Below are positions 44,577 through 44,930 of a stretch of 64,000 bases of DNA, in pieces. Origin of the DNA: Scyliorhinus canicula. Taxonomy: Eukaryota. Below the pieces are notes generated by a model. The model was given only the letters and a program-made list of their open reading frames with translations. It made no database searches and was not told where the DNA came from. The DNA lies in the NCBI RefSeq assembly GCF_902713615.1, contig NW_024055720.1, positions 1 to 64,000 of the forward strand. The letters run 5' to 3'. Position 1 is the first letter of the stretch. The number at the start of each line of letters is the position of its first letter. The position numbers were made by a program, and so were the translations under genes.

Positions 44577-44930
44577 TTACAGAGTGTTGTAATCAGTGAG
44601 GGGTTGAGGGGTTTGGTGGAATCCGAAGATGGGGGATTGCACTCTATAGATGGGTGAGGTGCTGGAACGAGAGGCTCTCCTCTTCCATTTCCTCAACCTG
44701 AGGGTCTGCACTAGGATGGTGAGGATCGCGATCACCAACAGTGATTCGATTATGTAGGACATGGAGTACCACGTCATGAATTTAGTACACCAGGTCTGAA
44801 CCTCGCTGATCAGAGCTGAGCACTGGGGGTTTGTTGTACTAACATTTACGGTGGGGGTTGTGGGGGAAACGTGTCTTGTTTCCACACATATACATATGAC
44901 ATTGAACAGTAATAAGTGGGCTTCCATCAT
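44577..44930 (-). CDS. Small predicted type-I membrane protein (117 aa) in the env position
   Basis: Signal-like MMEAHLLLFNVICICVET; NVS sequon; C-x10-C; TM YIIESLLVIAILTILVQTL; basic RLRKWKRR; tail ending TDYNTL. Candidate splice acceptor at 45033-45034. Confidence 0.7.
   Translation of the reverse strand: MMEAHLLLFNVICICVETRHVSPTTPTVNVSTTNPQCSALISEVQTWCTKFMTWYSMSYIIESLLVIAILTILVQTLRLRKWKRRASRSSTSPIYRVQSPIFGFHQTPQPLTDYNTL

Follow-up and report, generated by a model that had tools for sequence, protein, structure and literature searches.

A small membrane protein in the env position of a catshark retrovirus family is derived from the family's own Env

Introduction

In the standing view, an endogenous retrovirus (ERV) either keeps a whole env gene under selection and reinfects, or loses env and multiplies within the cell. 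Shortened Envs that are kept by selection, such as Fv4, Refrex-1 and suppressyn, retain the receptor-binding part, occupy single host loci and benefit the host. In foamy viruses, Env is needed for the budding of capsids that are not myristoylated. Purifying selection on env has been read as evidence of spread by infection, and very high copy number is given, in the available text of the same source, as the usual mark of intracellular retrotransposition, which needs no exit from the cell (PMC4643047). The env-less superspreaders FcERV-gamma6 and MLERV1_3, as outlined there, have deleted env and reached hundreds to thousands of copies; their env is lost or neutral and their Gag matrix is relaxed (PMC4643047).

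Small membrane proteins offer a second comparison. FAST proteins have, to our knowledge, no cleaved signal peptide. Reovirus FAST p10, in the parts of the sources at hand, has about 100-120 residues, a central transmembrane (TM) helix, a membrane-proximal ectodomain region, a polybasic patch, and a cystine loop that is both conserved and essential (PMC3961370, PMC12945298). The sORF2 protein of the Drosophila MDG1 group is described in the accessible text as a small single-pass N-out protein of 63-107 residues with an amphipathic ectodomain motif and a polybasic patch, encoded upstream of gag in insect Metaviridae, LTR elements without a fusogenic Env; it is mostly myristoylated, shows low dN/dS and has been proposed to act in cell-to-cell transmission, and the screen for it requires the N-myristoylation motif MGxxxS/T (10.1101/2025.03.14.642691).

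The locus described here lies in a 64,000-nt stretch of DNA from the catshark Scyliorhinus canicula, referred to throughout as the window. Its env slot holds an ORF of 117 codons. Like FcERV-gamma6 and MLERV1_3, the family has deleted env sequence and multiplied; unlike them, it holds the remaining env piece under strong selection and its Gag N terminus is not relaxed. In contrast to Fv4, Refrex-1 and suppressyn, the small protein retains the opposite end of Env and evolves along the replicating element's own lineages. It resembles sORF2 in its size, predicted topology, amphipathic motif, polybasic patch and low dN/dS, but belongs to a vertebrate retrovirus, occupies the env slot, has a predicted signal peptide and a sequon, and descends from Env. 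The size, central TM, membrane-proximal region and polybasic patch of p10 are also matched, but the loop cysteines are found in 13 of 35 family sequences, and there is no juxtamembrane dicysteine, no myristoylation motif and no sequence or fold match, while the N terminus is signal-like. The protein may work like FAST proteins or sORF2, but it belongs to neither group: it has no myristoylation motif and no conserved loop, starts with a signal-like segment and is descended from Env.

Among retroviruses, the family shares with XtERV-S and class III ERVs the in-frame gag-pol TGA, an unmyristoylated Gag, a tether with RNase H and an env splice donor upstream of the primer binding site; XtERV-S differs in having a full class I Env, a PSAP motif and, in the text available, no zinc knuckle (PMC8278194), whereas the shark family has a zinc knuckle and the mini form, and its Env is of another type. 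Lokiretroviruses have, like the shark family, a dual RNase H and, as in its ancestral Env, a signal, an RXKR site, a fusion-peptide-like segment, a coiled coil and a TM; the accessible text on them describes no mini-Env (PMC7947760). A preprint on a shark syncytin-like Env used known syncytins for its screen, as far as its available part tells (10.64898/2026.05.06.723177). No description of the family or of such a mini-Env was found in the open literature, a body that excludes subscription papers, Repbase/Dfam and bioRxiv supplements.

Structure of the element

The ORF is housed in a 9.85-kb LTR element on the minus strand of the window (43297-53143), and all of the features given below are on this strand. 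The element is flanked on both sides by GACC, a 4-base target duplication. Its 5′ LTR (52198..53143) and 3′ LTR (43297..44243) differ at 2 of 947 positions (945/947 identical), which marks the element as young. The primer binding site (52173..52190), presumably that of tRNA-Arg, is common to the entire family; at four loci complementary to it, ARAGORN found no tRNA. The polypurine tract (44244..44256) adjoins the 3′ LTR. For comparison across the family, a pattern built on the primer binding site, from which the dominant subfamily is excluded, found 83 sites; 76 were fetched and, with one diverged copy, make up the 77 loci referred to below. Two exclusion patterns aimed at diverged copies matched 4 and 0 times.

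The gag gene (50131..51879) encodes a long coiled coil and one zinc knuckle. Gag has neither Gly2 nor a PSAP, PPxY or YPxL late motif, and its N-terminal 100 codons have a dN/dS of 0.10-0.16, so that they are not relaxed. The pol gene (45904..50130) follows in frame behind the gag TGA and encodes protease, RT, tether RNase H, RNase H and integrase; with this domain set, the element is a retrovirus and not a gypsy element. The TGA-C(G/A)G context of the gag-pol junction is found in the window and in 31 of the 77 sister loci. In the window the junction reads TGA-CGG-TGT (50130-50133), which is conserved across subfamilies, and the TGA-CGG context is listed as a readthrough type, in the part of the source available otherwise for alphaviruses and coltivirus (PMC13517186). 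Behind the integrase, Pol has an extension of ~170 residues rich in S, T, P and D (45904-46400), in which a C-terminal block is conserved. The spacer carries a short duplicated segment (45561-45663) that varies among young copies.

The window RT groups with frog and coelacanth 'NYNRIN-like' proteins (support 95), outside the class I-like and presumed Loki clades, and the element is read here as class III-like on this tree, which is without named class III or Loki references. The RT stands apart from the teleost clade, in which an RNase H motif of the Loki supplement recurs (PMC7947760). A retrovirus in two contigs of a metagenome assembly (L202 and L203) has pol intact and encodes a class I Env of 579 codons (RKR, CX6CC); its distance from the window is greater than that of the frog and coelacanth proteins.

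A 22-mer from the ORF has 1,069 exact copies in the genome, and the youngest copies, more than 1,000 in number, are 96-99% alike. Two loci (L066 and L075) have near-identical interiors and different LTR U3 regions, which points to promoter swaps. A young copy at L263 (C4:50692900-50702899) interrupts the env of a class I ERV; it was rejected as an env-bearing member of the family, since the env there is that of the other ERV. A pol-less companion lineage (L130, L132, L137, L138, L140, L144, L151 and L179) has a gag that continues through a further zinc knuckle to a hydrophobic tail at its C terminus. Its module is 85-94% alike, the other parts of the elements being far more diverged, and this pattern suggests that the module has repeatedly recombined onto different subfamilies. 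Elsewhere, the window contains 78-nt tandem arrays and a region of degenerate 54-nt repeats (3792-4383, 38917-39150 and 55917-63333), with a strong GC skew at 56-60 kb.

The 117-residue protein

The ORF (44577..44930; 117 residues plus stop) lies between the pol stop (45904) and the polypurine tract. A sequence-only reading had placed a 117-residue protein here; the ORF is present and well beyond what chance would give (intact in 90/90 loci, dN/dS below 1 in 6/6 pairs). The plus strand is closed over 44577-44930, and the protein is encoded on the minus strand. The parts which that reading had named, a signal-like N terminus, NVS, C-x10-C, a TM, RLRKWKRR, IYRV and a terminal TDYNTL, are all in the sequence, and the furin site and CX6CC it had reported as missing are absent from the 117-residue ORF. 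Its ectodomain of ~45 residues must be revised to about 28 residues after the predicted signal and a 12-residue aromatic membrane-proximal stretch. Motif counts below refer to 35 family sequences, 28 genomic and 7 RefSeq-derived. Full-length members have 112-124 residues and a single 19-residue TM besides the hydrophobic N-terminal segment.

The N-terminal segment, residues 1-18 (44877..44930), is hydrophobic across the family and is predicted to be a signal peptide that would be cleaved. None of the 35 sequences has an MG start or an MGxxxS/T myristoylation motif. The signal is followed by a short stalk rich in S, T and P (44793..44876), in which both deletion junctions described below are located. 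The stalk carries the N29 sequon (44838-44846), and NVS at residues 29-31 is found in 33/35 sequences. Cys37 (44820-44822) is not conserved, and the C37-x10-C48 pair occurs in 13/35 sequences, from young subfamilies only. The aromatic, amphipathic membrane-proximal region, TWCTKFMTWYSMS (44757..44795), matches the W-rich membrane-proximal region of Env. Residues W47, C48, W54 and S58 are invariant in 19/19 sequences, and the hydrophobic moment around WC is 0.50-0.71 in 35/35 sequences, values that stand without a shuffle control.

The TM helix (44703..44765, about residues 56-76) has a conserved Glu62 and a pLDDT of about 90 over residues 61-80. It is followed by the polybasic patch RLRKWKRRA (44673..44699), which matches 'QFRRWKAK' of Env; 5-8 K/R are found within the 15 residues after the TM in 33/35 sequences, the remaining two being truncated. 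The tail has a conserved motif, (I/V)Y-x-(V/L/I/M)-x-(S/A)P-(I/F)-(F/L)-G (44607..44651), which also ends the full Env and whose Tyr is nearly invariant in the family. The terminal TDYNTL (44580..44597) is a recent four-residue extension in the youngest subfamily. Its resemblance to ITSM and YxxL motifs, from which a receptor-like role had been proposed, does not extend to the family, as YNTL is present in 3/35 tails and no other YxxPhi is found in any of the 35. Both the cystine loop and the ITSM-like end are, on these counts, recent and confined to young subfamilies.

In the databases, the protein has relatives only among RefSeq models, nine in number, from S. canicula and S. torazame. Pfam and viral fold searches with the protein gave no match, and no relative was found in the viral contigs searched. 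A single-sequence homology search gave two candidates, neither scored, and the best value in an ESM Atlas search, 0.88, is a lead only.

Conservation and selection

The ORF is intact in 90/90 near-identical loci fetched, some of which are the same place fetched twice, and in 29/29 non-window copies picked via the upstream spacer, independently of the ORF. Since the youngest copies are so alike, their intactness says little, and the evidence for selection comes from diverged members. The ORF profile matches 39 of the 77 loci, among them subfamilies with pol identity down to about 58-63%, and homologues are found in two catshark species. The dN/dS values below are simple counts between natural copies, in which mutation after insertion pushes values towards 1.

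Over residues 45-111, dN/dS against the window is 0.05-0.19 (21 of 27 pairs with unsaturated dS), compared with 0.06-0.14 for gag and 0.05-0.10 for pol, a spurious pol row (L130) being set aside. The dS of the ORF is 0.4-1.5, so that its synonymous sites have diverged as much as those of gag and pol. Six disjoint pairs over the whole ORF give dN/dS of 0.10-0.39, all below 1 (Fisher p 2e-3 to 2e-11), and the other two sense frames are at 1.10 and 1.51. Of the indels in the ORF, 6/6 keep the frame, compared with 14/141 in the flanks (13 pairs, which are not all independent). Region by region, with non-independent pairs pooled, dN/dS is 0.57 for the signal, 0.51 for the stalk, 0.12 for the membrane-proximal region, 0.08 for the TM, 0.19 for the basic patch and 0.21 for the tail. 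By these counts the ORF is under strong purifying selection, as constrained as gag and pol, and selection is concentrated on the membrane-proximal region, the TM, the basic patch and the tail. The 117-residue ORF is thus real and, by evolutionary criteria, functional, and the earlier description of a membrane protein in the env position is borne out, the protein being small and of type I.

Descent from Env

Among the 77 loci, pieces of a long gene lie at the position of the ORF in L179, L189 and L199, and its first part alone in L177. In L179 the gene is a broken Env of ~600 codons, with stops and frameshifts, directly behind the same acceptor motif that precedes the ORF. Its layout begins with a signal, a Cys-containing N-terminal part, RVKR and a segment that starts with GLV (Ala/Gly-rich in other copies), and continues with two helical stretches on either side of a Cys-rich beta region, followed by a membrane-proximal region rich in W, a TM and a tail. 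The gene is called Env from its position, its acceptor, the RVKR-GLV site and this architecture. One Env piece has 146 matches in the genome. All 30 Env-bearing loci that were fetched are broken or partial, where 'partial' may reflect the cutting of loci at 1.5 kb on either side, and a site of the RVKR-GLV type is found in 16 of them. The mini form, with its 1,069 exact 22-mer copies, is by comparison the amplifying one.

The small ORF is linked to this gene by two nested gaps. When L177 is aligned with L179, the leader and the start of Env align (65%, E 3e-70), ~1.35 kb is skipped, and the alignment resumes in the TM, the tail and the 3′ UTR. In L177, an Env segment ending in GPKPAPNT is continuous in frame with the small protein's stalk and membrane-proximal region, so that this locus holds an intermediate between the full Env and the mini form. 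Relative to L177, the basal small ORFs of L125 and L145 skip a further ~310 nt. The acceptor and signal region of all three loci aligns as DNA with that of Env loci. At the other end, alignments of L163 with Env ends extend over 336-355 nt at 66-67%; with the L179 Env end, 355 nt align at 67% (E 4e-25).

The L163 protein scores 95-119 against 5/5 Env ends, values reached by 0/500 shuffles; in the same comparison, 28 class I Env tails score at best 41. The window protein scores 51-69 (0-11/500 shuffles reach this), L145 is reached by 0-4/500 shuffles, and L138 and L169 score modestly (0-89/500 block shuffles); against Env ends, L163, L145 and the window protein lie above all 28 class I Env tails. 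A profile-profile comparison (hhalign) of young sequences alone with Env is weak (probability 7%, P 0.005), in an HMM of Env ends class I Env tails score as high as the small ORFs, and the window DNA has diverged beyond direct alignment to Env loci. The link to Env therefore runs via basal copies and DNA alignments. The order of the deletions rests on their nesting and not on a rooted tree, because the gag of full-Env copies is too degraded for a Gag tree.

The 117-residue ORF is thus the family's Env after two nested internal deletions, neither a replacement of env, as had been supposed, nor a foreign gene; the alignments of L177, L125/L145 and L163 identify it as the homologue of a deleted Env. 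About four fifths of env has been deleted, including the cleavage site and the predicted fusion peptide. What has been lost from the mini form is most of the ectodomain, along with the furin site, the receptor-binding domain and the segments interpreted as the fusion peptide, the heptads and the Cys-rich domain; what remains is the signal peptide, the short stalk with its sequon, the membrane-proximal region, the TM, the polybasic patch and the tail. The protein shares with retroviral Envs its position, predicted splicing from a 5′ donor, signal, TM and tail, and is by descent an Env derivative, but not a fusogenic Env. Since the ORF clearly does not evolve neutrally, it is a functional derivative and not a mere remnant.

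The family Env itself has no match in Pfam, PDB or the fold libraries. Unlike the paramyxovirus-F-like Env of lokiretroviruses (PMC7947760, available text), the shark Env pieces do not match PF00523, and the Env model is of low confidence: a natural stretch of 233 residues folded with a pLDDT of 42 and matched nothing in three libraries. The full Env (L179:2100-4200, L285-L314) comprises two subunits, a short N-terminal one and a long C-terminal one that holds the Cys-rich beta region, and may be an undescribed Env type. The class I Env of L202 matches 0/77 family loci, and class I Env tails reach at most 4.9 bits on the ORF profile; these probes are negative because the family Env is of another type. 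A match seen by eye between the tails of the ORF and the L202 Env was rejected (probability 0.6%).

Expression

A predicted branch point and splice acceptor (45011..45045) precede the ORF, with the first exon base at 45011, 81 nt before the ATG, and no ATG between the two. The motif is found upstream of the ORF in 25/28 ORF-bearing copies, and also precedes the full Env in L179. The predicted major splice donor, CC|GTAAGT (52615..52625), is in the R region of the 5′ LTR and would be used for the env-type message; 17 of the 25 LTRs examined have GTRAGT at the matching place, some 107 nt downstream of the TATA box. The predicted spliced leader contains no ATG, compared with 14 in the unspliced spacer. 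The small protein would thus be expressed from an env-type spliced mRNA that joins the R donor to the acceptor at 45011. In the contigs of four runs guessed to be RNA (none is on record as such, and the contigs cover the ORF), no donor-acceptor joint was found, and the depth of these contigs cannot rank regions.

In eight RefSeq models whose frame is beyond doubt, the join to host exons lies 15-30 codons upstream of where the ORF starts, and in three of them (P0076, P0077 and P0079) the junction residues fit the predicted acceptor by eye; all are predicted models. In all, nine RefSeq models from the two catshark species (P0076-P0084) end in the ORF as a captured exon, which adds a TM and a tail to HEPACAM2-like, galectin-domain, glucuronosyltransferase-like and CoA-transferase models.

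Function

The favoured reading, which is put forward tentatively, is that the small protein serves as a membrane anchor or router that gathers capsids for release, or for direct passage from cell to cell, without classical Env fusion. The protein would enter the ER, be N-glycosylated and reach the cell surface, and its tail would bind Gag, which has no myristoylation signal of its own. Anchored capsids would then be gathered at the cell membrane, from where they could be released or passed to a neighbouring cell. Since the protein would benefit the genome that encodes it, selection could hold the gene in a family of more than 1,000 copies. The final merger of membranes might be carried out by the protein itself or by host fusion events, or there might be none, if budding is into an internal compartment. 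This reading is preferred because Gag lacks Gly2 and a late motif, because its N terminus is unrelaxed, and because the pol-less companion lineage retains both gag and the mini-env ORF (in 6/8 loci, with a full Env in a seventh). The high copy number argues for intracellular copying, and the anchoring of capsids would also fit this if budding is into an internal membrane.

Vpu and the counter-defence of Env tails provide an analogy for a different role, in which the TM binds a host membrane protein and the Tyr-containing tail reroutes it, protecting the cell or the particle. The TM is the most constrained part of the protein (dN/dS 0.08) and conserves Glu62, the tail Tyr is nearly invariant and the stalk evolves faster (0.51), all of which would suit an accessory antagonist or modulator. 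Such a role is nevertheless rather unlikely: there is no conserved YxxPhi, ITIM or ITSM, and a product acting in trans would be exposed to free-riding among more than 1,000 copies, yet the pol-less copies retain the ORF.

The likeness to FAST proteins, noted from the layout alone, holds for the membrane-proximal helix, the TM and the polybasic patch, all conserved (0.12, 0.08 and 0.19), and fails for the cystine loop. By analogy, the aromatic membrane-proximal helix might merge neighbouring cells as in reovirus FAST or Drosophila sORF2, and capsids might pass from the soma to germ cells. The parts that are conserved are those of the FAST type, selection has outlasted the deletion of the classical fusion parts, and size and N-out topology match the sORF2 screen, which in the available text covers proteins of 60-210 residues with one TM and a polybasic patch (10.1101/2025.03.14.642691). 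However, 0/35 sequences start with MGxxxS/T, the cystine loop is confined to 13/35, the signal looks cleavable, a glycosylated stalk would keep membranes apart, and every conserved part is simply inherited from Env; no fold or profile match was found. A true mini-fusogen is on this balance unlikely, and equally so that a vertebrate retrovirus has made a FAST- or sORF2-like micro-fusogen by deleting env, exchanging cell-free infection for soma-to-germline passage.

It is very improbable that the ORF is a non-functional Env remnant, held only by constraint on the RNA or by recent amplification. The close identity of the youngest copies (96-99% among more than 1,000) and the missing transcript joint in the four guessed-RNA runs would fit a remnant, but the amino acids are held while dS is 0.4-1.5, on a par with gag and pol, 6/6 indels preserve the frame against 14/141 in the flanks, and there is no Rfam match. 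The capture of a TMEM156-like host exon, or of another foreign gene, in place of env is the most improbable reading and is largely refuted by L177 and L163: PF15106 matches 14/19 members at E up to 0.1 (best 0.00093), all below the curated cut-off (14.4 bits for the window protein and 22.9 for the best genomic one, against 27), but all six sub-threshold matches of a genome-wide PF15106 search are copies of the ORF itself, and the DNA is continuous with the family's own Env and its 3′ UTR.

Conclusions

The shark family follows a third way between keeping and losing env, in which the binding and fusion parts of Env are dropped and the anchor is held under gag-like constraint. The mini form spans many subfamilies, two species and more than 1,000 copies, and every full-Env copy examined is dead. 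By evolutionary criteria it is a functional gene, and a new variant of retroviral env. It documents an evolutionary path from Env to small membrane proteins like those tied to the cell-to-cell spread of insect retrotransposons. If the protein were a micro-fusogen, the step-by-step origin of a small cell-cell fusogen from a large viral one would be visible, because all three forms, full Env, intermediate and mini form, are still present in the genome. With its 117 residues, the gene separates out a function of Env that involves no fusion, or minimal fusion, and is easy to test.
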